This document shows, in pieces, positions 1-9,986 of a DNA stretch of 10,941 nt. The position numbers were made by a program, and so were the translations under genes. The first letter of the stretch is position 1; each line of letters opens with the position of its first letter. The stretch comes from Candidatus Heimdallarchaeota archaeon (GTDB lineage: Archaea; Asgardarchaeota; Heimdallarchaeia; Heimdallarchaeales; Heimdallarchaeaceae): positions 1 to 10,941 of the forward strand of contig JABCTC010000072.1 of NCBI GenBank assembly GCA_018238545.1, given 5' to 3'. The notes under the pieces are model-generated. The model was not told the DNA's origin. It did no database searches and saw only the letters and a program-made list of their open reading frames with translations.

Positions 1-1
1 T

Positions 2-1531
2 CTCTTTAGGTTTGGTTTCAGGAGCTAGGGTTTTTTTTAACTTCTCTCTAGTAATTCTACGGAGATGGTTTTCAGCTCTTTCATAATCTAAACCTATGTC
101 ATTAGTTCCTTGAATACTTTCTCCTTTCAAAATATCCTCAATAAATTCTGTTTCTTCTTTGGTAAAGTGTCCATACTCATCTTTAGAACCAGTAATAAAA
201 GTCCAACTACCAACTGTTCCTGTTCCCTTTTTGACAGAGAATTTAGCCTTCTTATTGTAGCGGTTTTCAAATTCAGTTTTAAGAAGATCTCTGATAGCTT
301 TTGTTCTTTCCACAGATGTTTCAGGAACTCCTTCAGCTTTGTTTATATCTTTACGTAAATCTTCATACTCATCAATTTCAGCTATACTAAGTAGAGTTTT
401 AAGATGTTTCTTGGCTTGGTCTATATTTTCTATTGTATTTAGATCAGTTGGTTTCTTTGTTTCTTGTTTAGGTTTAAAATCCATTTGTTCATATTTTTCT
501 TTAGTTATTACTTCCCAGCGTTTTTCTTTATAGGTTATATTTGTAGGTTTAAATTTATTAAACCATTTCTCAGCTCCTTCTTTAGAAGTGGATTTGTGTA
601 AGATCTGTCCTGTACCATCAATAATATAATATTGTTTTGGTTTTTCAGCTTGTTTTCTAGCGTCTAATCTAGCAAACTGTTTCTTACTAATCTGAACTTT
701 AGCTTCAGCTATCTCTTTCTTGATGTGTTGATAAGTAGGATCAAACGTTCTTTGTTCAGGAGTTAGTTTCATACCAAGTCTAGCTAGTTCTGATTCATCC
801 TTTCTAGCAATGTCAATTAATTCTTGAATTGAAAGATCATCAGAAATCTTTGATACGTGTTTAGGTGAGGATGGTTTTTCCATATCTTTATATCTTTGAA
901 TGTAGGTTTTTTCCATCTGTTTGTGCATGACTGGATGATCAGGATAACGCAAGTGTAATAGTTCGTGAATTATTACTTTGTCTTGAAAGTCTTTACTTTT
1001 TTCTAGAAGTTCAGGATCAAAACGAACACTATTTGTACTTGTTGCTTCACCCCATTTTTTACCTTTCATGTCTTTAAACAATATAGCTTTGGGTTCGACA
1101 TTCATATCAGCAGCGATATAAGATACTCGTTTAACAAAAGCACTCATTGTATCGTGGTCATAGGTTTTCTCAAGTTTAGGAGGAGTGTCTATTCCTTCTA
1201 CATCTCTTTTAGTAAAATCAAAGAACTGCTTAGCTGTTAAAATTGGAGCTGTTCTAGTATCTTGAGCTCTTATCCTTAGATCTCGTGCTGCTGCTTGAGG
1301 ATTAACTCTTCTTCTAGCAGCAAATTGCAATTCCAGATTATCTTTATCTAATTCATAACCAGTAAAAATTTTACTGTATTCGTACCCAGAACGATTTCTT
1401 AGCACTAAAGCCTTATCTTTTTTAGTTTTAATCGTTCTTTCGCCTTTTCGCAAATTTTCTTTATTCACCCAGAAACCCATCTTTTTAGCTGGTACTGGGA
1501 TATTCAGTTTCTTTGTAACCTTTTTAGGCAT
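2..1531 (-). CDS. Large multidomain protein (>=510 aa, 3' end outside the window) with a YgjP/DUF45-like zinc metallopeptidase domain; polyvalent-protein-like
   Basis: Not in the ORF track. Manual translation from ATG 1531 (MPKKVTKKLNIPVPAKKMGFW...) is open to the window edge. It contains MKGKKWGEATSTNSVRFDPELLEKSKDFQDKVIIHELLHLRYPDH, with HELLH at 953-967 and a third His at 935-937. This matches the YgjP/DUF45 pattern (WG...hhHELxHLxxxxH). The start overlaps the stop of the upstream ORF. Confidence 0.85.
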   Translation of the reverse strand, partial: MPKKVTKKLNIPVPAKKMGFWVNKENLRKGERTIKTKKDKALVLRNRSGYEYSKIFTGYELDKDNLELQFAARRRVNPQAAARDLRIRAQDTRTAPILTAKQFFDFTKRDVEGIDTPPKLEKTYDHDTMSAFVKRVSYIAADMNVEPKAILFKDMKGKKWGEATSTNSVRFDPELLEKSKDFQDKVIIHELLHLRYPDHPVMHKQMEKTYIQRYKDMEKPSSPKHVSKISDDLSIQELIDIARKDESELARLGMKLTPEQRTFDPTYQHIKKEIAEAKVQISKKQFARLDARKQAEKPKQYYIIDGTGQILHKSTSKEGAEKWFNKFKPTNITYKEKRWEVITKEKYEQMDFKPKQETKKPTDLNTIENIDQAKKHLKTLLSIAEIDEYEDLRKDINKAEGVPETSVERTKAIRDLLKTEFENRYNKKAKFSVKKGTGTVGSWTFITGSKDEYGHFTKEETEFIEDILKGESIQGTNDIGLDYERAENHLRRITREKLKKTLAPETKPKE

Positions 1532-1757
1532 TAGTTTCTTCTCCGTTTAGTTCTGTTTCTTCAAGTTTTAGTAGTGCTTTGAGGAAAACTTCACCATGTC
1601 TTTTGATGATCCTTTTCTCTTTACGCATATAATCTTGATATAATTCAAAATTTCCAGAAACTTTTAGAATCGAATAGTTTTCTAGAAATTCTTCTAGACT
1701 TAATTTTCTAATATTATTAAGTCTAGGTTTCATTGTCATTAACTCATTCCAAATCAT
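1524..1757 (-). CDS. Hypothetical protein, 77 aa
   Basis: Fills the gap in the operon exactly: ATGA overlap with the zinc-ribbon gene upstream and an 8-nt overlap with the gene downstream. No recognisable motif. Confidence 0.7.
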   Translation of the reverse strand: MIWNELMTMKPRLNNIRKLSLEEFLENYSILKVSGNFELYQDYMRKEKRIIKRHGEVFLKALLKLEETELNGEETNA

Positions 1758-1912
1758 TTTACATCACTTTTTACTACTGTTGAAAGATAGATGATATTTC
1801 GAGCAAAAACGACTTTACAGCTAGGACAGCGTAAAGTGACCATATCTATGTCATCTTCTATATCTAGATATTTAGGTATGAATTCGCAACCACATCTAGG
1901 ACATTGTACCAT
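1754..1912 (-). CDS. Small zinc-ribbon protein (CPxCG-type), 52 aa
   Basis: Not in the ORF track. Translation: MVQCPRCGCEFIPKYLDIEDDIDMVTLRCPSCKVVFARNIIYLSTVVKSDVK*, with two CxxC knuckles. The ATG directly follows the TAA of the ATPase gene, and the TGA overlaps the next ATG. Confidence 0.85.
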   Translation of the reverse strand: MVQCPRCGCEFIPKYLDIEDDIDMVTLRCPSCKVVFARNIIYLSTVVKSDVK

Positions 1913-3505
1913 TTACTGTCTTACCCCCCGCTCTTTTTCAAGTAATGGCTGTGCTGATTCGGACTGTTTTTGAACTTTATCTTTTGGGTGAACTTGGGGA
2001 GTTTTTTGCGGAGAGGAAGAGAGGGTAAGACGTGAAAGCATTTTCAACCCCTCTGAGAGCGTCATAAACGGATTGTCCGTCCTATCCGAGCCTACAGGTA
2101 AATTGCGTTTTTCACTAATGTATCCTGAATCGAAAATTTGCACGAGATTCCTAGTTAAATCATAGTACAATACGAAAGTTTCGAATCCGTTTTGAGAAAA
2201 AACGTAAGTGGTTTTGTAATGATTTTCCCAAGAATAACTGTTCATTCCTTCACCAACTTTGAGATTAATAATGGTGTTTTCTCCTAAAAGTAGATCATCT
2301 TCATAGATTTTATTGTCTATTGTATGTCTAGGTTTATGAGAATGAGGAATGTCTAAGTCCACACAAGCGTTAAGAACAAATTGCTCAAAAAGTTCTTCTC
2401 CTCGTTTAGCACTAATGTAACCAAAAACAGAAGAATTTTTATCTTTGATCAGATTTCTACGCATATCGAAAACTTTCGTTCTGCCACAAGATAATTTTTT
2501 CCATGTTTCAGGGGAAGCAGGAGGTTCATCCTCTATAACTAAAATCTTCCAGAACTCAGCGTATTTGTCATATTTAGGGTGAATCAACAATTCTTCATAG
2601 ATTTTTTCTTCCCAGTCAAAAACATCTATTTTTGTCCAGTTATGATCTATTGTCGGAATGCCTTCACCTTCGCCTCTTCTCAGAAATTCTACATCCCACA
2701 GATCTGTCTTATCGACAACAGGATTATACCATAACCCTATTTTCTTTGTTGATTCTACCTTATATGTTCCATAACCAAAATAGTGCCCATATTTTTTCAT
2801 GGCTTCGGAAACTTGGTAGACTCTTTTTTTAGATTTAACTAGTGTTCTTTTCTCACTACATTCGTTAAGAAACTTAGCTCCTTTATAAGAGACTAGCTTG
2901 CTAATTTGATGAGTGGAGTCATAGACATTCGCTTCAGTAGGAACGCTTTTGACAATGATTAGGTCGATATCATCTCTGAAAAGTTCAGGAATGGAAAAAT
3001 ATCTGTGAACACCTAAAACTTGAATTAATATCCCTTCATTTAGTCCAGTTTTGTTTTTACAGATCCATCTACGCTTTTTGATATTTACTTTAATATCTTT
3101 ATACTGTTTAGTGAGAGCAGAAGTAACATCTTCAGCACATAAAAGGATATATTTTTTGTTTCTAGGAATTTTCTGGTAGAGAGCTTCTAACTCGGTAGAA
3201 GTTACTTCAGTGAAACTTTCTTCTGTAGGAAAGATATCTTTAAAGAAATCGCAAATAAAATCTATGGTTTCACTTTTTCCAGATTCTTCAGCCCCTACAA
3301 CTAAAATGTAGGTTATGGACCATTGATTTTTTTCTTTAACGGTTGTTTTAGCTTTCTTTTTTAGATAACGAATATAGGCAGGTTTGGGAAAAAGCTCATC
3401 TAAAACTTTGTAAGCTTGTCTTAATCCTTCGTCTTGATCTGGATCATCAAAAGGATTTTTTTGAAATACAATTGTTTTAGGTGGATCATAATCTCCCCAG
3501 CTCAG
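1913..3505 (-). CDS. ~530-aa P-loop ATPase (FtsK-HerA/A32-like packaging-type) with putative HTH and C-terminal PD-(D/E)XK-like nuclease domain; probable CTG start
   Basis: The track ORF 1913..2800 stays open upstream for 236 more codons, to 3508. The extension has Walker A ILVVGAEESGKS (3272-3295), a Walker B-like YILLCAED (3128-3151), and VLGVHRYFSIPELFRDDIDLIIV, which resembles the A32/HerA hhhxQ...P..hR...dhhh motif with His for Gln. The C-terminal half has RGEELFEQFV...EDDLLL...INLKVG. CTG at 3503-3505 lies 7 nt after GGGGGT. Confidence 0.8.
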   Translation of the reverse strand: MSWGDYDPPKTIVFQKNPFDDPDQDEGLRQAYKVLDELFPKPAYIRYLKKKAKTTVKEKNQWSITYILVVGAEESGKSETIDFICDFFKDIFPTEESFTEVTSTELEALYQKIPRNKKYILLCAEDVTSALTKQYKDIKVNIKKRRWICKNKTGLNEGILIQVLGVHRYFSIPELFRDDIDLIIVKSVPTEANVYDSTHQISKLVSYKGAKFLNECSEKRTLVKSKKRVYQVSEAMKKYGHYFGYGTYKVESTKKIGLWYNPVVDKTDLWDVEFLRRGEGEGIPTIDHNWTKIDVFDWEEKIYEELLIHPKYDKYAEFWKILVIEDEPPASPETWKKLSCGRTKVFDMRRNLIKDKNSSVFGYISAKRGEELFEQFVLNACVDLDIPHSHKPRHTIDNKIYEDDLLLGENTIINLKVGEGMNSYSWENHYKTTYVFSQNGFETFVLYYDLTRNLVQIFDSGYISEKRNLPVGSDRTDNPFMTLSEGLKMLSRLTLSSSPQKTPQVHPKDKVQKQSESAQPLLEKERGVRQ

Positions 3506-3508
3506 TAG

Positions 3509-4414
3509 TTAAACCCCCTTTTGTTCGAGTAGTTTTGCGAGTTGGCGTTTTCCTATCTTTTTGCCTAGCTCCTTCTCTTCTCGCTCAATTTCCTCTTTAA
3601 CCTCAAGCAGAACAGTTAAGTCTGCTTTTGCTTCAGCTATTCTTTTATTAAGATTAAGATTAAGCATCTGGTTACAGCCTTTCTGCATCGAGGAAAGCTC
3701 GTTTTTGGATTGAATTAGATCCTCTTTGTCTTGTAGTTGTCGTAGTTTCATAATAGCATATTCTTCATTTGATTCATCGAAATACTCTTTAGTTTCTTTT
3801 CTAATTTCTGAAATATGTTCTTTTATTTCGTCTTTTGCTTCATTCAATTTTCCTATCACCTTTCGTTTTTTTTCATAATTTATTGCTCTTTGAAGAATCT
3901 GTAAGTAGATTTTCAAAGTCATTAAAGCTAATGGACTAGCATCAGCTTCTTCTGGATCTAAAAGATAACCTTCCTTATATTCTTCCTTTTCAGGATTAAG
4001 AACCATATCAACAGCTAGAGCAGCAAGTCTATTTTCCCAAGAATCCAATTTGATTTTAGAAAGCGGAATGGGAGTGATAGCAGGTTGTTTTTGTGCGCTA
4101 TAACTAGCTTTCTCGATCTTAAGAGCAGAACTCATAAGGTATTCTGCATTTTCTTGCCCTTTCTGAGAAAAGTGTTTTATACCTTCTCTGTAAGTATATT
4201 TGTTATTACAGCGGAAAGCTCCTGCAACGAAGTAGATAATGTGCTTCTGATCTTTGAGGAAATTAACTTCAGCATAATAATCCCAAAATTCTAAAGCTAG
4301 TTGGATAGAAGCAAAATTATTAGGCCCCATGTGGAGAGCAGCACCGTACATGTGGTGAATAAAACTCATCCAGTTAGTAGCGTCTAAAGTTTCAGTTCTC
4401 TTCCTCGCTGACAT
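3509..4414 (-). CDS. Hypothetical protein, 301 aa, with a C-terminal E/K-rich coiled coil
   Basis: ORF track. The C-terminal ~130 aa are heptad-like and highly charged (KLNEAKDEIKEHISEIRKETKEY...EVKEEIEREEKEL). It overlaps the upstream gene by 23 nt. Confidence 0.85.
   Translation of the reverse strand: MSARKRTETLDATNWMSFIHHMYGAALHMGPNNFASIQLALEFWDYYAEVNFLKDQKHIIYFVAGAFRCNNKYTYREGIKHFSQKGQENAEYLMSSALKIEKASYSAQKQPAITPIPLSKIKLDSWENRLAALAVDMVLNPEKEEYKEGYLLDPEEADASPLALMTLKIYLQILQRAINYEKKRKVIGKLNEAKDEIKEHISEIRKETKEYFDESNEEYAIMKLRQLQDKEDLIQSKNELSSMQKGCNQMLNLNLNKRIAEAKADLTVLLEVKEEIEREEKELGKKIGKRQLAKLLEQKGV
3513..3518 (-). promoter_or_regulatory. Putative Shine-Dalgarno (GGGGGT) for the CTG-initiated ATPase gene
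   Basis: The minus strand reads AAGGGGGT-TTAACTA-CTG, a 7-nt spacer. Similar GAGG(T) motifs precede the starts at 6046 and 5399. Confidence 0.5.
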
Positions 4415-5399
4415 AATACATCATCACTGCGTCTAGTTCTTCTTTTGATTTAGCTTGACTTAATTCTTTCAATAGACTCTTTTGTCCTTCAATTTCTACT
4501 ACACCATCATAAGGTTCAGTCTTCTTGTCTGTAACCCTCTTAATTCGCAAAAATTCTTCGCCTTTGTGAGGTAGAGCAACGTCTAATACCATTTCTAGTC
4601 TTTCGATAACAACGTTTCTGAGTTGATATTTAGCTTGTAATAATTGCTGTTTAATATCGGCTGTACCTAGAATAGTTTCATAAATAACGTTTTTTTCCAC
4701 TTCTTGTTGTGTAGGAGGTAAACCTTTAATGATCATGGTATAATAATCTCTAATAGGTTCAGTGACAAGAATAGCTTGGTTAAGAAAACATTTTTTGGTT
4801 TCTATATCTGTGATATATAAAGAATCATTTCTCCATGAAAGAGGAACGATATCCAATTCTAAGAAATCTTTGTCTTCTTTACCTTTTTCTTTGAAAACTC
4901 TTTCAGAACCATTTTCTTTAAAATATTGAACAGTTACTTTGTCTAGATAAATGGGTTTATTGCCAAAGAATCTTTTCTCATGCAAAAGATATCCATCGGA
5001 GGTTGTAGTAACTTTGAAAAAGTAAGTATGTTTAGAACCTAGTTCTCGAAAACCTACTTTATCAACATGAATAAAATATTTGATAATGAGGTAGATCAAT
5101 GGAGCAAAGAGCAAAGCTAATCCAGCTCTTGAAACAACAAACCAAATGGCGAGAAAAACCCATTTAAGAACCCAATAAAGCAAAATAAAAATACCTACAA
5201 AGCCAAAGCCCCAGTGCATTTTCATAACAAATATAACAAATGGAAAACCTATAATAAAAAAGAAAATTATAGAGATAATTGTTCCCCAAAACAGTTTAGC
5301 ATGTCTTACAAGTAATTCGTATTTGTATCGTTGCCAAATACTACGAGTAGGAGTGTCTTCTCGCTCTAATTTTATGTTCATCTGTTGTGGATCACTCAT
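4392..5399 (-). CDS. Membrane protein, 335 aa, about 3 N-terminal TM helices and a soluble C-terminal domain
   Basis: Hydrophobic stretches LFWGTIISIIFFFIIGFPFVIFVM, WGFGFVGIFILLYWVLKWVFLAIWFVV and AGLALLFAPLIYLII. ATGA coupling to the upstream gene with a GAGG SD. Confidence 0.85.
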   Translation of the reverse strand: MSDPQQMNIKLEREDTPTRSIWQRYKYELLVRHAKLFWGTIISIIFFFIIGFPFVIFVMKMHWGFGFVGIFILLYWVLKWVFLAIWFVVSRAGLALLFAPLIYLIIKYFIHVDKVGFRELGSKHTYFFKVTTTSDGYLLHEKRFFGNKPIYLDKVTVQYFKENGSERVFKEKGKEDKDFLELDIVPLSWRNDSLYITDIETKKCFLNQAILVTEPIRDYYTMIIKGLPPTQQEVEKNVIYETILGTADIKQQLLQAKYQLRNVVIERLEMVLDVALPHKGEEFLRIKRVTDKKTEPYDGVVEIEGQKSLLKELSQAKSKEELDAVMMYYVSEEEN

Positions 5400-6046
5400 T
5401 TTTGGTCCTCTTTGATTTTGCTTTTAATGAAATGTTTTACGCCCGTACCTTCTCGCTGAATAACTATCACGCCAGTAAAAATTATCATAAAAGGAATGGT
5501 CACTAAGTAACTTAAATTGGTATATAGAATCTCTTGTTTGTGTTTCTCTTCACTCATAGATTCTTCGTCTTCATCACCAGGAGGTCGCCACCAAGACGAT
5601 TCGTCATAAGTATACAGAAGAGATAATTGTGCATAAATTACTTCTCCAGAGAGATCTGTTACAGATGCAGTCCAAATCAAGTGCTCCTTATCCATGTGAG
5701 GACGGACAGTCCATCTCCTTTCTTTTGCTCCTATACCATTTTCGTTATCAATTTCAAGAAACATATCTTCGTCACTATCAAATATACGCAACCTGAAGTT
5801 TCGCTCTGCATCCATGCAAATTACTACGACTGTGATATACATGTAATCTGAACCAGAATTATTAACACCAGTAGTAGTTACAGTTAAAGCACCTGATAAG
5901 TCATCAAATCTTTCAACGTAAGTATACAAACCTGGGGAATCGACTCCTATTCCTTCTTCAGTGGATAAGGCACTTGCTGTTGAACTAAAACAGATAAGAA
6001 ATAGTAATGGGACCACAATTAAGAATAATTTCTTTTTCTTTTTCAC
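5396..6046 (-). CDS. Secreted, C-terminally membrane-anchored protein, 216 aa
   Basis: Class I signal peptide MKKKKKLFLIVVPLLFLICFSSTASA, a beta-rich ectodomain, an acidic linker (PPGDEDEESMSEE), a TM helix (LSYLVTIPFMIIFTGVIVI) and a basic tail. The GTG start overlaps the TGA of the upstream gene, with GAGGT upstream. Confidence 0.85.
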   Translation of the reverse strand: MKKKKKLFLIVVPLLFLICFSSTASALSTEEGIGVDSPGLYTYVERFDDLSGALTVTTTGVNNSGSDYMYITVVVICMDAERNFRLRIFDSDEDMFLEIDNENGIGAKERRWTVRPHMDKEHLIWTASVTDLSGEVIYAQLSLLYTYDESSWWRPPGDEDEESMSEEKHKQEILYTNLSYLVTIPFMIIFTGVIVIQREGTGVKHFIKSKIKEDQK

Positions 6047-9000
6047 TTGTTTAACCTCTCTTTCTTTTTAACGTTTTTATTAACAATATATATAGCAACT
6101 AAAATAATAATGAGTGCAATAGCTGACATACCAGCTATGAATGCTGGTTTTGTCCACCATTTATCTATCACTTCTTCTTCTTCAGGTTCAAAAACCAAAT
6201 CTAATGGTATTACAATCACGTAAGGAACTGTTCTAAGTTCTGGATAATCTGTTATATCATCATATAATTCAACCATAGCACCATTTTCATCATAAGTTGT
6301 TGAACCAACAGAAAGGATTCTAATCTCATAAGTGCGATTACAAACCCAATATTCTGTCTGATAACCAGGAGGGAGTATGGGTGTTGTTTGCCACTCTTCG
6401 CCACTCAAATAAGACCGTATAGAGATTTTATGACTTTCATCATCGTTATTCACTACACCTAAACGATAAACTGGAAGTTCAATAATAGCATAAGCAAAAC
6501 TTGAAATATCTATTGTTAGATTATACATTATTTCTCTACCGAATAAATCTGTGATAGTTAAATTATGGATCGGCATGTTGTTTCTGATTCTTATATAATC
6601 ATTTGCGATAAAAGTATAATTTGAGTAGTCTGGAACATCGTCAATTTCTCCATCAAAAATCAACTTTCCATTAAAATAAGTATTAACCCATGAAACTTCA
6701 AACGCATCTCCAATGGCTAATCCAAGATAATTAGTTGGAACATATCTTATTCGAATATCATAGAACAATTTTGTCTCATACCAAAATTCGTAAGAGATTG
6801 TTGCATTATATTCAGCAATAGGATACCCTTCGCTATCTGTAGAGATATTATAACTGTATATTAATGTGATATTATGTAATCCGACTTTAGATGCCTTAGG
6901 AATTGAATAGCGTGTCTCTGTGCTGTCATCAATGATTAATACACTATCATGCCAGACATCAACCCAGAAGAACGCTAAATTAGTGTAGAGGCTGATATTA
7001 TAGAAGCCCTGACTGTCGGTTCTATAAAGGTCATTTGAAGGGTGTAATGGAGGAATAAGGTTGCTATACCAGGTCATAAAAGTGATATTTTCAGAACCGT
7101 AAGTAAAGACTATAGTAAAGTTGTATAATCCTGCTGCTCTGCTCTTTGGTGAGATAATAATTGTTCCAACAGCCATTCCCGATCCACTACCAATATCTAG
7201 GTCATTTTGATATACAATGTAGGTATAATCAAAATTAGCTGTAGCGTAAATATTCAAATAATCATCAGAAACATAGAAAGATTCAACATAGACACTAAAG
7301 GCAATAGGAGGATAAACAGAATAACTAAAGCTGTGAATAATGTCATCATATCCAGCAGCAGAAAAGATAAGTGTAACATAATGATTACCGACTGTGGTAT
7401 TTTTAACCCAAGTCGTTGTACTCTCTGGATCACTATCTTCGATCAACATTCCATCTTCATAAATAGTGAGAGAATCTAAAGCTGGAAGAGTTGTATCCCA
7501 AGTAATAGTGATAGTTGAACCATCAGTAACTCTGTAATCTGTCAAGTAGAAAGGTGTTCTTGGATTGCTGTAAGTAGTGTTAAACCATATTTCTGTGGAT
7601 TCATAAACAAATTTGATAGCATAAGCAATCGTTATCCCTGCGGTAATATTTTTATTTGTTTCAATGACCGTTCCAGAACCATAAAGAGTTCCAGTTTCAA
7701 TTTCAACATTATCTTCATAAACATAGTAAGAACCATCATAGTTTGCTGTAGCGTAAGTATTCACATAATTATCTGAAACTTGAAAACTACCTATGTCGAC
7801 TTGAAAATCTGCAACAGCATAAATATGATAATTGAAAGAATAAGCTACGGTTGTATAACCATCTGCTTCAAACAATAACGTCACAGAATGAGTTCCAACA
7901 ACAGTAGATTTTGTCCAATCAGAAGGACTAGTTGTGTCTTCATTAACAGTAGTAAGTGCTCCATCCTCATAAACAGTTAGTTTGTCGCTATCAGTCAAAG
8001 AAGTAGCCCAAGTAACTGTTATTGTTGTATCGCCGATATTTACAGAATAAGAAGTAACAAAGAAAACTCCTTCAGTGTTACTATAAGTAGTGTTAAACCA
8101 GATTGTGTCTTCAGCAGCATTCCAGAATTTTATGGCATAGTTGATGAAAGCTCCTTCGGTTGTATCACGATCTGTTTGAATAGATGTGCCAACACTGAAA
8201 AAAGGTGTGGGAGAGTCTGAAGGGATAGCTGTGTTATTCTCATAAACTTGATAATTACCATTCTCACTAGCTGTGATATAGGTGTTGACATATAATTCAC
8301 TCAAATGAAAAGATTCAATGTTGATCTCAAAGATAGCTGAAACAATCTCATAATTAAAAGAATAAATTATATCTTGAAAACCAGCAGCTGAAAAAATCAA
8401 AGTAACGTAATGCACTCCAACAGTAGAAGATTTAGTCCAAGATGAAGGACTGGTTGTATCTGCATTAACTGTAGTAAGTGAACCATCCTCATAAACAGTG
8501 AGAGAATCAATAGTGCTTTTAGAAGTACTCCAGATTATTTCGACATTCTCTTCTCCAATTTCAACAGTATAAGATGAAACGTAAAAAGCAGAGACAGGGT
8601 TATTGTATCTCGTGGTGAATGTAACTGTTTCAGAACCGTAAGTGAATTCTAAGGTTAAGGTTACTTCTGAACCAGGAGTGGTGATTCTTGTTACACTGAT
8701 CGTTGTTCCTTCCTTATCAATATTACCACTACCAGAACCACCTGCAGTTATTTCGTAAGAACAATCATAATTACTCGTGACAAATAAATTAGCATAATCA
8801 TCACTCAAATAGAAATTCTCGACAGAAACACTGAAAGCAGCAGAATCAACAGTGTAGAGATATTCATAAGTAGAACTAAGATAAGCTCTTTCTTCTCCTG
8901 CGCTGAAAAGAACATAAGTAAGATTGTGATTTCCAACAGTGTTATTCTTTAGAATTGTTTCAAGATCCTGATAAACACCTAAATAATTGGAATCAGAATA

Positions 9001-9819
9001 AATTTCATATTGATAGGTGTTGTTTTCGCTTGAAAGATAGAAAGTTGTATCAGTTTCGTATAACTCAGGATCTTCAACGTGAACAAGTCTGATATACTCA
9101 ATATCAATTTTAGTTCCTACTACAAATGTGGTTGTGGAATTAGAAAAAAGGATTTGAAAATCTGTTTCTGTTCCAGTCCATGATGCAGAAGTTATTTCCA
9201 CACAAAATTCATACCATTTGTCAGCTAGAAATCCTCCATCACCATAACCACAATCATCCCAACCATTAACATCTACGACCGTATTTCCCCAATGTCCATC
9301 ATAGAGATATATTTCTCCTAGTGCTGTGTCTGTTCTACAAATAGTTACATTTGTTCTAAATCTCATCGCAAAATGGGTATAATAAGAAGTATCTACTGAA
9401 GCAGTTGAACTATAATCTGTGTAAATATATACTGTTGCAATACCTGTTTTTGCAACAAAAGAATAAATCCCATTTTCATGCGTTTCTGATCCAACATCAC
9501 CACATGTTGAATCCCAATCGTCAGTGTCCCCTTCAGTCCAATCCCAAGCGTCTAATTCAAAGATTTCAGCGTAATCTGTTTCGGTGGGAACAGAGGGAGT
9601 GAAATAAAAACTACAATTATTAAATTCTCCTGAAGAATAACTGTAAGTCCAGATTTCATATTCTTTTTGTTCTAAAGTGCCTCTAAAAGTTGTTTGAATT
9701 ATTCCGTTGCTATCAGTTGTTAAAGAGGTAACATCGGGATAAAGTGTCGATAAAGCTTTTGAATGTGCCAGCGCAGTTGCTTCTGTCCAAAATTTTGAAA
9801 GAAAACGGTTGCTTTTTTG
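6043..9819 (-). CDS. Very large acidic surface glycoprotein / adhesin / spike-like protein with Ig-like repeats and a C-terminal TM anchor; 5'-truncated
   Basis: The track start at 9366 is internal. The frame is open to 9819 and reads in the same style up to about 9720 (TTDSNGIIQTTFRG...ELDAWDWTEGDTDDWD). No signal peptide or start is visible, so the true N-terminus is missing. The protein is T/S/Y/D/E-rich with about 20 N-X-S/T sequons. It ends in PAFIAGMSAIALIIILVAIYIV followed by NKNVKKKERLNK. Confidence 0.85.
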   Translation of the reverse strand, partial: QKSNRFLSKFWTEATALAHSKALSTLYPDVTSLTTDSNGIIQTTFRGTLEQKEYEIWTYSYSSGEFNNCSFYFTPSVPTETDYAEIFELDAWDWTEGDTDDWDSTCGDVGSETHENGIYSFVAKTGIATVYIYTDYSSTASVDTSYYTHFAMRFRTNVTICRTDTALGEIYLYDGHWGNTVVDVNGWDDCGYGDGGFLADKWYEFCVEITSASWTGTETDFQILFSNSTTTFVVGTKIDIEYIRLVHVEDPELYETDTTFYLSSENNTYQYEIYSDSNYLGVYQDLETILKNNTVGNHNLTYVLFSAGEERAYLSSTYEYLYTVDSAAFSVSVENFYLSDDYANLFVTSNYDCSYEITAGGSGSGNIDKEGTTISVTRITTPGSEVTLTLEFTYGSETVTFTTRYNNPVSAFYVSSYTVEIGEENVEIIWSTSKSTIDSLTVYEDGSLTTVNADTTSPSSWTKSSTVGVHYVTLIFSAAGFQDIIYSFNYEIVSAIFEINIESFHLSELYVNTYITASENGNYQVYENNTAIPSDSPTPFFSVGTSIQTDRDTTEGAFINYAIKFWNAAEDTIWFNTTYSNTEGVFFVTSYSVNIGDTTITVTWATSLTDSDKLTVYEDGALTTVNEDTTSPSDWTKSTVVGTHSVTLLFEADGYTTVAYSFNYHIYAVADFQVDIGSFQVSDNYVNTYATANYDGSYYVYEDNVEIETGTLYGSGTVIETNKNITAGITIAYAIKFVYESTEIWFNTTYSNPRTPFYLTDYRVTDGSTITITWDTTLPALDSLTIYEDGMLIEDSDPESTTTWVKNTTVGNHYVTLIFSAAGYDDIIHSFSYSVYPPIAFSVYVESFYVSDDYLNIYATANFDYTYIVYQNDLDIGSGSGMAVGTIIISPKSRAAGLYNFTIVFTYGSENITFMTWYSNLIPPLHPSNDLYRTDSQGFYNISLYTNLAFFWVDVWHDSVLIIDDSTETRYSIPKASKVGLHNITLIYSYNISTDSEGYPIAEYNATISYEFWYETKLFYDIRIRYVPTNYLGLAIGDAFEVSWVNTYFNGKLIFDGEIDDVPDYSNYTFIANDYIRIRNNMPIHNLTITDLFGREIMYNLTIDISSFAYAIIELPVYRLGVVNNDDESHKISIRSYLSGEEWQTTPILPPGYQTEYWVCNRTYEIRILSVGSTTYDENGAMVELYDDITDYPELRTVPYVIVIPLDLVFEPEEEEVIDKWWTKPAFIAGMSAIALIIILVAIYIVNKNVKKKERLNK
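7057..8841 (-). repeat. Intragenic tandem repeat: alternating A and B domains of ~85 aa each, arranged A-B-A-B-A-B-A (period ~170-174 aa)
   Basis: A units begin FSVSVENFYLSDDY, FEINIESFHLSELY, FQVDIGSFQVSDNY and FSVYVESFYVSDDY. B units contain LTVYEDG...WTKS..VG.H.VTL.F.A.G. A DNA-level near-repeat GAAGGACT...CCATCCTCATAAACAGT occurs at 7922 and 8444, 522 nt apart. Confidence 0.9.
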
Positions 9820-9851
9820 TTAGGAATTTCACCTTCAATAACCAATATTTC
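9774..9851 (-). other. Short fragment resembling the C-terminal Tudor-like domain of PcrA/UvrD helicase (Bacteroidota type)
   Basis: EILVIEGEIPNKKATVFFQNFGQKQL resembles the PcrA/UvrD tail pattern V..IEG...NKKATIFF...GQKQLLLKFAKL, but breaks off before LLKFAKL. Recognised from memory. Confidence 0.55.
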
Positions 9852-9986
9852 GTACCCTTGCAGCACTCTTATTACATCCCGTTTATATTTTGGCCTCTTC
9901 TTAACGCCCCGTATACCTCTAAAACCTTCCCGGCGAACCTCTTCTTTACTCTTAGGTTCTGCGCTATCACAGATTATTTTATCATC
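9837..9986 (-). other. Internal fragment of a PBSX-family phage terminase large subunit (RNase H-like C-terminal domain)
   Basis: IICDSAEPKSKEEVRREGFRGIRGVKKRPKYKRDVIRVLQGYEILV matches the typical TerL segment I.aDSAEPKSI.El...G....ga.K.......I..LQ.Y.I.V. Only about 50 aa are present. Confidence 0.7.

Follow-up and report, generated by a model that had tools for sequence, protein, structure and literature searches.

A series of closely spaced genes for a giant surface protein, smaller membrane proteins and an ATPase raises the question of whether the locus builds a virus particle, exports DNA from an integrative element or belongs to the cell that carries it. The window (the whole stretch of DNA that was analysed, 10,941 nucleotides) is one complete contig (C2) of a 3.63-Mb, 128-contig Heimdallarchaeaceae metagenome-assembled genome (MAG; G000). 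The first-pass annotation had read it as a translationally coupled morphogenesis or extrusion module of a new enveloped archaeal virus and had guessed at an Asgard host; the guess was right, because homologues of the window proteins bear Heimdallarchaeota or Heimdallarchaeaceae names in NCBI. The window is likely to hold the genes with which non-tailed, membrane-assembled viruses of the Heimdallarchaeaceae, in a group not described before, carry out morphogenesis.

Gene content of the window

The coupled series is real: all eight minus-strand genes are present from ~9735 to the left end of the contig, with junctions of -23 to +3 nt. The first encodes a giant type-I membrane adhesin (6043-9735), of which ~1230 aa are present. 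Its ORF has no start in the window, the 5' end having been severed by foreign DNA, and its homology to relatives, which are 1462-2027 aa long, ends near 9735-9740, with unrelated fragments beyond. The protein contains beta-rich repeats of ~172 aa and gave no Pfam, PHROG or PDB match of note. Hydropathy places a single TM segment at its C-terminus, in keeping with the predicted membrane anchor, but its 'sequon-rich' character is mainly a matter of composition: the 21 sequons counted do not clearly exceed a shuffled mean of 15.8 (P ~0.09).

The last ~1.2 kb of the contig (9740-10941) lies outside the element; on the minus strand it is a mosaic of a 130-aa ORF, a GIY-YIG piece and a Bacteroidia-like lipoprotein piece that shares 57-60% identity with a protein from that class. 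No second copy of any of these fragments was found elsewhere in the MAG, and the right end is probably an assembly chimera, judging by its sequence. One foreign piece (9840-9985) matches phrog_6672, labelled terminase large subunit (E 1e-7), and is unrelated to the module. The MAG contains fragments of related elements, at least three or four in number, spread over contigs C2, C67, C97, C23, C128, C22, C44, C108, C70 and C15; the last five have their matches in the accessory region of the circular 30-kb contig described below. Contigs C128, C23, C67 and C97 were considered as the missing 5' half of the window's giant gene and rejected, because each encodes the part of the giant protein that the window already has, at 29-47% identity.

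Downstream of the adhesin gene lie genes for a 216-aa protein (5396-6046) with a signal peptide and a C-terminal TM, and for a 335-aa protein (4392-5399) with three N-terminal TMs and a soluble domain; hydropathy bore out both topologies as predicted. The 3-TM protein has 22 homologues, and an ESM Atlas feature search with it gave no usable match. A 301-aa soluble protein follows (3509-4414), with a conserved N-terminal region of ~190 aa and a coiled-coil-like tail; it is weakly similar to a 223-aa protein that occupies the same position in the second subtype. Next comes the ATPase gene (1913-3505).

A 52-aa Zn-ribbon protein (1754-1912), with weak matches only, and a 77-aa protein (1524-1757) are encoded by genes that vary among relatives and are accessory. 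The last gene (2-1531) runs off the contig end and encodes a multidomain protein of at least 510 aa, with a conserved N-terminal region of ~120 aa, a YgjP-like metallopeptidase domain (aa 117-218) and a variable remainder; the metallopeptidase domain was not found in the two full-length relatives scanned. The Zn ribbon and metallopeptidase listed in the first-pass annotation are thus present, but not as constants of the module. Proteins of the 510-aa type (window 2-1531; L025 6087-7502; L066 440-2017) combine the constant N-terminus with wholly different C-terminal domains, and in this they are like the polyvalent proteins of phages and conjugative elements.

Synteny, mobility and host

In ~ten further contigs the giant adhesin gene is again followed, wholly or to the extent of each contig, by the genes for the signal+TM protein, the 3-TM protein, the protein of 223-303 aa and the ATPase, in that order: C67 and C97 of the same MAG, contigs of three related MAGs and several metagenome contigs. 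The synteny expected in archaeal MAGs is therefore conserved. Scans of IMG/VR and a JGI metagenome scan returned no relatives; short peptide patterns were used, so these scans do not prove absence.

The upstream DNA lost from the window could be read in the relatives, where the operon opens with a ~410-aa protein with a signal peptide and two TMs. This gene is followed either by small multi-TM proteins of 60, 62, 100, 232-251, 75 and 136 aa, or by the 136-aa protein and four signal+TM proteins; the relatives encode two-TM hairpins of 60-75 aa, and small membrane proteins are numerous upstream. The ~410-aa family has 24 matches among 1.84 billion representatives. An ESM Atlas feature search with this protein gave no usable match, and its fold model (pLDDT 38) was unusable. 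Elsewhere, an 80-aa protein (L006 6498-6740) with a signal peptide, a short acidic segment, a TM and a basic tail recalls inovirus coat proteins by its architecture, with no significant profile match.

The whole module is present on one metagenome contig of 30,200 bp, ERZ4219663 NODE_448. Its ends carry a 91-nt terminal direct repeat (89/91 identical), so the contig most likely represents a complete circle of ~30.1 kb. Its ~60 genes are mostly tiny and densely packed, and include ORFs that resemble Zn fingers or short regulators, as well as genes for ASCH, radical SAM, DNA methylases and a protein with an ORF6C domain. Its Pfam labels include no housekeeping, polymerase or integrase label, and no host genes were recognisable. 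A 10.5-kb part of it is 100% identical to a contig of a MAG of the same genus (G010). In another relative the ~410-aa gene is immediately preceded by a tyrosine integrase gene. The element is mobile, as shown by the integrase in one relative and the circular contig in another. The window probably corresponds to the second half of the morphogenesis operon of a circular dsDNA virus, together with the first part of its accessory region.

The distribution of the genes is sporadic. The 3-TM gene was found in 4/82 Heimdallarchaeia genomes, all of one family; for the ~410-aa gene there were clear cases in 3/399 genomes of the phylum. Many of the genomes searched are incomplete MAGs. Both single-contig members of the family (G026, G029) are without the 3-TM, ~410-aa and ATPase genes.

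The host link is given by CRISPR spacers, as the first-pass annotation had proposed. Three of ~46 spacers from two genomes of the same family match giant genes of the group, all three from G024: 31/36 to the window, 30/38 to C128 and 32/40 to a 54-kb contig (79-86%), whereas 0/282 shuffled spacers reach 75%. The protospacer-like stretch in the window lies at 8078-8116 on the minus strand, within the giant gene (31/36, or 32/39 with a longer spacer boundary). As the matches contain mismatches, the true targets of the spacers are relatives of these elements. The three matching spacers, in G024 arrays L069 and L129, share their orientation relative to the repeat and all target the giant gene. One of the arrays flanks a RAMP-rich, type III-like cas locus, as read from ORFs. 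In the window's own MAG a single CRISPR array was found, with 3 spacers and only a 16-nt match. Seven other short DNA matches, and those checked in a further search, lay outside CRISPR arrays and were dropped.

On C67 (L003, 2608-7864) a type IV-B-like cluster stands directly after the ATPase gene (a CxxC protein, a 149-aa protein, two RAMPs and CysH) and converges on IbrA/IbrB genes; a repeat scan found no CRISPR array on this contig. Type IV-B-like cas clusters are typical of plasmids and conjugative elements too, as are polyvalent proteins (PMC5512222).

The ATPase and comparison with known systems

The ATPase gene predicted earlier is present, but its extent needed revision: the product is a 530-aa fusion of an FtsK-HerA (A32/pI-type) ATPase, a helical linker and a PD-(D/E)XK-fold C-terminal domain. 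No ATG lies near the start of the frame, and CTG 3505 is probably the start, because homologues have ATG at the aligned position. In a structural model (pLDDT 74) a P-loop domain leads through a helical region to an alpha/beta domain at the C-terminus. In Foldseek searches STIV B204 ranked first in the PDB, and the first BFVD matches were an unnamed protein and two archaeal-virus proteins, followed by A32-type ATPases; one of the two archaeal-virus proteins belongs to a Nitrosopumilus spindle-shaped virus. Over residues ~20-270, a wide structural search gave members of the FtsK-HerA superfamily: VirB4 (Z 10.6), B204 (Z 10.2) and HerA (Z 9.7). By profile, pleolipovirus NTPases were the closest to the N-terminal domain among the references tested (87.8%, E 3.4e-6, 136 columns). 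The proposed kinship with pleolipovirus and spindle-virus motors therefore holds. The ATPase domain is compact (~250 aa), lacks a TM and has Zot/A32-like structural neighbours. A tblastn search of INPHARED with a related ATPase found no match.

For the C-terminal part, the wide search gave PspGI (Z 8.6, residues 285-497), RecU (Z 8.5) and Hjc (Z 8.4, both 367-496), values that barely exceed background; a D...EVK motif visible in two relatives agrees with these PD-(D/E)XK matches. The C-terminal half exists in two versions, each of which occurs irrespective of the N-terminal subtype. That the protein is an active ATPase is uncertain, because the first glycine of Walker A is absent in three relatives and Walker B reads ED in place of DE in the window's subtype. 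ATPase genes of both subtypes occur on one contig, ~1.8 kb apart (L025, 4347-8677), and a truncated copy lies amid host-like genes in L144 (G010:C32, 8926-9906), either a provirus remnant or a misassembly. The fold of residues ~20-270 is common to the FtsK-HerA superfamily, including STIV B204, A32 and inovirus pI (Zot), from which the module's ATPase differs in its helical and PD-(D/E)XK-fold domains and its non-canonical Walker motifs.

In gene order and topology the module parallels the core block of the Pleolipoviridae (HRPV-1 genes 3, 4, ORF6, ORF7 and gene 8; His2 ORFs 29-33), which have the same succession of a large type-I surface protein, a signal+TM protein of ~200 aa, an internal-TM protein of ~300 aa and an NTPase. 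The 216-aa protein is like ORF6 in position and topology, with no detected sequence homology, and the 335-aa protein takes the position of ORF7. A ~135-aa multi-TM gene upstream, circular genomes and, in some members, an integrase extend the likeness, as does the conserved NTPase. The module differs in its surface protein of 1.4-2.0 kaa with beta repeats, in the fusion of its ATPase to a nuclease fold, and in encoding the ~410-aa protein and more small TM proteins. Pleolipoviruses have genomes of 7-17 kb and hosts in the Halobacteria (ICTV, PMC12642806), a definition into which a 30.1-kb circle from the Heimdallarchaeaceae does not fit.

Profile comparisons with the pleolipovirus structural proteins gave low scores. 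With hhalign, a 9-member VP4 spike profile gave 0.2% for the giant C-terminus and 0.1% for the ~410-aa protein, against 100% for the His2 spike control; VP3 gave 0.15% for the 136-aa 4-TM protein encoded upstream in relatives; and the ORF6 and ORF7 profiles gave ~1% for the proteins in matching positions, against 97-98% for controls. A PDB search for a spike fusogen found no match. A His1-like two-TM MCP was sought by profile (best 6.5%), in a test so insensitive that its positive control, His1 against SSV1 VP3, reached only 0.4%. No double jelly-roll capsid was found, and no known capsid, matrix or fusogen homologue was detected among the structural proteins. The description of the window as a divergent enveloped-virus relative is thus supported in its related NTPase, synteny, mobility and CRISPR targeting, but not by a spike or a His1/SSV1 capsid homologue.

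Wyrdviruses have genes for an MCP and an adhesin, a block of further genes and a pI-like ATPase that lacks a TM; some also carry ASCH and methyltransferase genes (10.1101/2021.07.29.453957). Together with NMV3, the Halspiviridae and the Thaspiviridae they resemble the module in their small TM genes, adhesin, gene block and TM-less ATPase. Wyrdviruses and NMV3 also have Asgard hosts, but from Loki or Thor lineages rather than Heimdall, and wyrdviruses, as described, have five genes between adhesin and ATPase where the new group has three in every locus. The viruses that PMC8813620 and PMC13700489 tie to the Heimdallarchaeaceae either are head-tailed or have no stated morphology. HeimV1 and HeimV2 (PMC8813620) share the host family, HeimV1 being circular at ~30 kb and HeimV2 carrying IbrA/IbrB, as on C67, but their apparent host genomes (G026, G029) lack the 3-TM, ~410-aa and ATPase genes. 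A literature search found no report of Heimdall pleomorphic viruses, nor of Heimdall type IV-B.

Nature of the element

These comparisons suggest that the module probably works like pleolipovirus and wyrdvirus systems, but do not place it in either group. The envelope or shell of the virion would be made of the ~410-aa protein and up to six small TM proteins, all encoded upstream in relatives; the giant protein would bind the host surface, and the signal+TM and 3-TM proteins would constitute the membrane assembly site. Packaging of the genome would be driven by the TM-less ATPase, and the particle would leave the cell by budding or extrusion, with no lysis, as has been suggested for pleolipo-, wyrd- and inoviruses. 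The nuclease-fold domain fused to the ATPase may act in packaging by cutting or resolving the DNA. Against this reading count the lack of matches to known capsid, matrix or fusogen proteins, the IMG/VR scans that returned no relatives, the near-equal scores of VirB4 and B204, the altered Walker motifs, and spacer matches that are imperfect and stem from a single genome.

The same genes could be arranged as a cell-contact DNA-export system of a non-viral plasmid or integrative element, with the adhesin holding the mating contact, the TM proteins as channel and the ATPase-nuclease pumping and processing DNA. VirB4, HerA, TcpA and TrwB rank alongside B204 in the structural search, the VirB4-like fold being common to all FtsK-HerA motors; no capsid was detected; and the group includes the cas cluster of C67 and a polyvalent-like protein, both of types typical of plasmids and conjugative elements. 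This reading is nevertheless unlikely: an ATPase domain of ~250 aa is like those of viral packaging ATPases and nearest by profile to pleolipovirus NTPases, the complete circle has no relaxase, partition or T4SS Pfam match, and its dense arrays of 45-100-aa genes resemble viruses.

Somewhat less probable still is a divergent wyrdvirus or pleolipovirus-related virus whose hallmark proteins have diverged past detection. The wyrdvirus layout, including ASCH/methyltransferase genes (10.1101/2021.07.29.453957), the two-TM hairpins and the NTPase homology are consistent with it, but the number of genes between adhesin and ATPase, the absence of a pPolB or HUH Rep Pfam match on the 30-kb circle and a genome larger than those of pleolipoviruses argue against it, as does a spike profile that recovers the distant His2 spike and finds nothing here. 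That the module is a chromosomal host surface or secretion locus is very improbable; it was found inside MAGs, and a short stretch of the complete chromosome G029 matches the giant gene at the DNA level, but the module was not found in 78/82 class genomes, occurs on a circular contig and is targeted by CRISPR. A conserved chromosomal locus and a tailed virus had been named in advance as findings that would count against an enveloped virus. Neither was seen here; no HK97 capsid, portal or terminase appears among the NODE_448 Pfam labels, for the part of its genes scanned, or the PHROG hits of the module proteins.

The most likely explanation for these observations is the membrane-assembled virus, which would extend enveloped or extruded viruses to the Heimdallarchaeaceae and supply new candidates for fusion or envelope proteins. 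The group is recurring and CRISPR-targeted, its structural genes all encode membrane proteins without known homologues, and the complete 30-kb genome makes the idea testable. A more specific proposal is tentative: a new family of Heimdallarchaeia viruses with its own virion type, in which the ~410-aa protein, possibly a new fusogen, and hairpin-TM proteins make the envelope, a single ATPase-nuclease serves as a terminase analogue that cuts and extrudes DNA, and some members carry an array-less type IV-B Cas complex.

On three contigs, of 35, 54 and 131 kb, more distant relatives of the ~410-aa protein are likewise encoded ahead of TM genes and a giant gene. On the 131-kb contig (L036, 3569-21275) the ~420-aa homologue comes after an intein-containing MCM and an S8 peptidase, and is itself followed by TM genes and a giant protein with laminin-G; this contig is possibly a larger related element.
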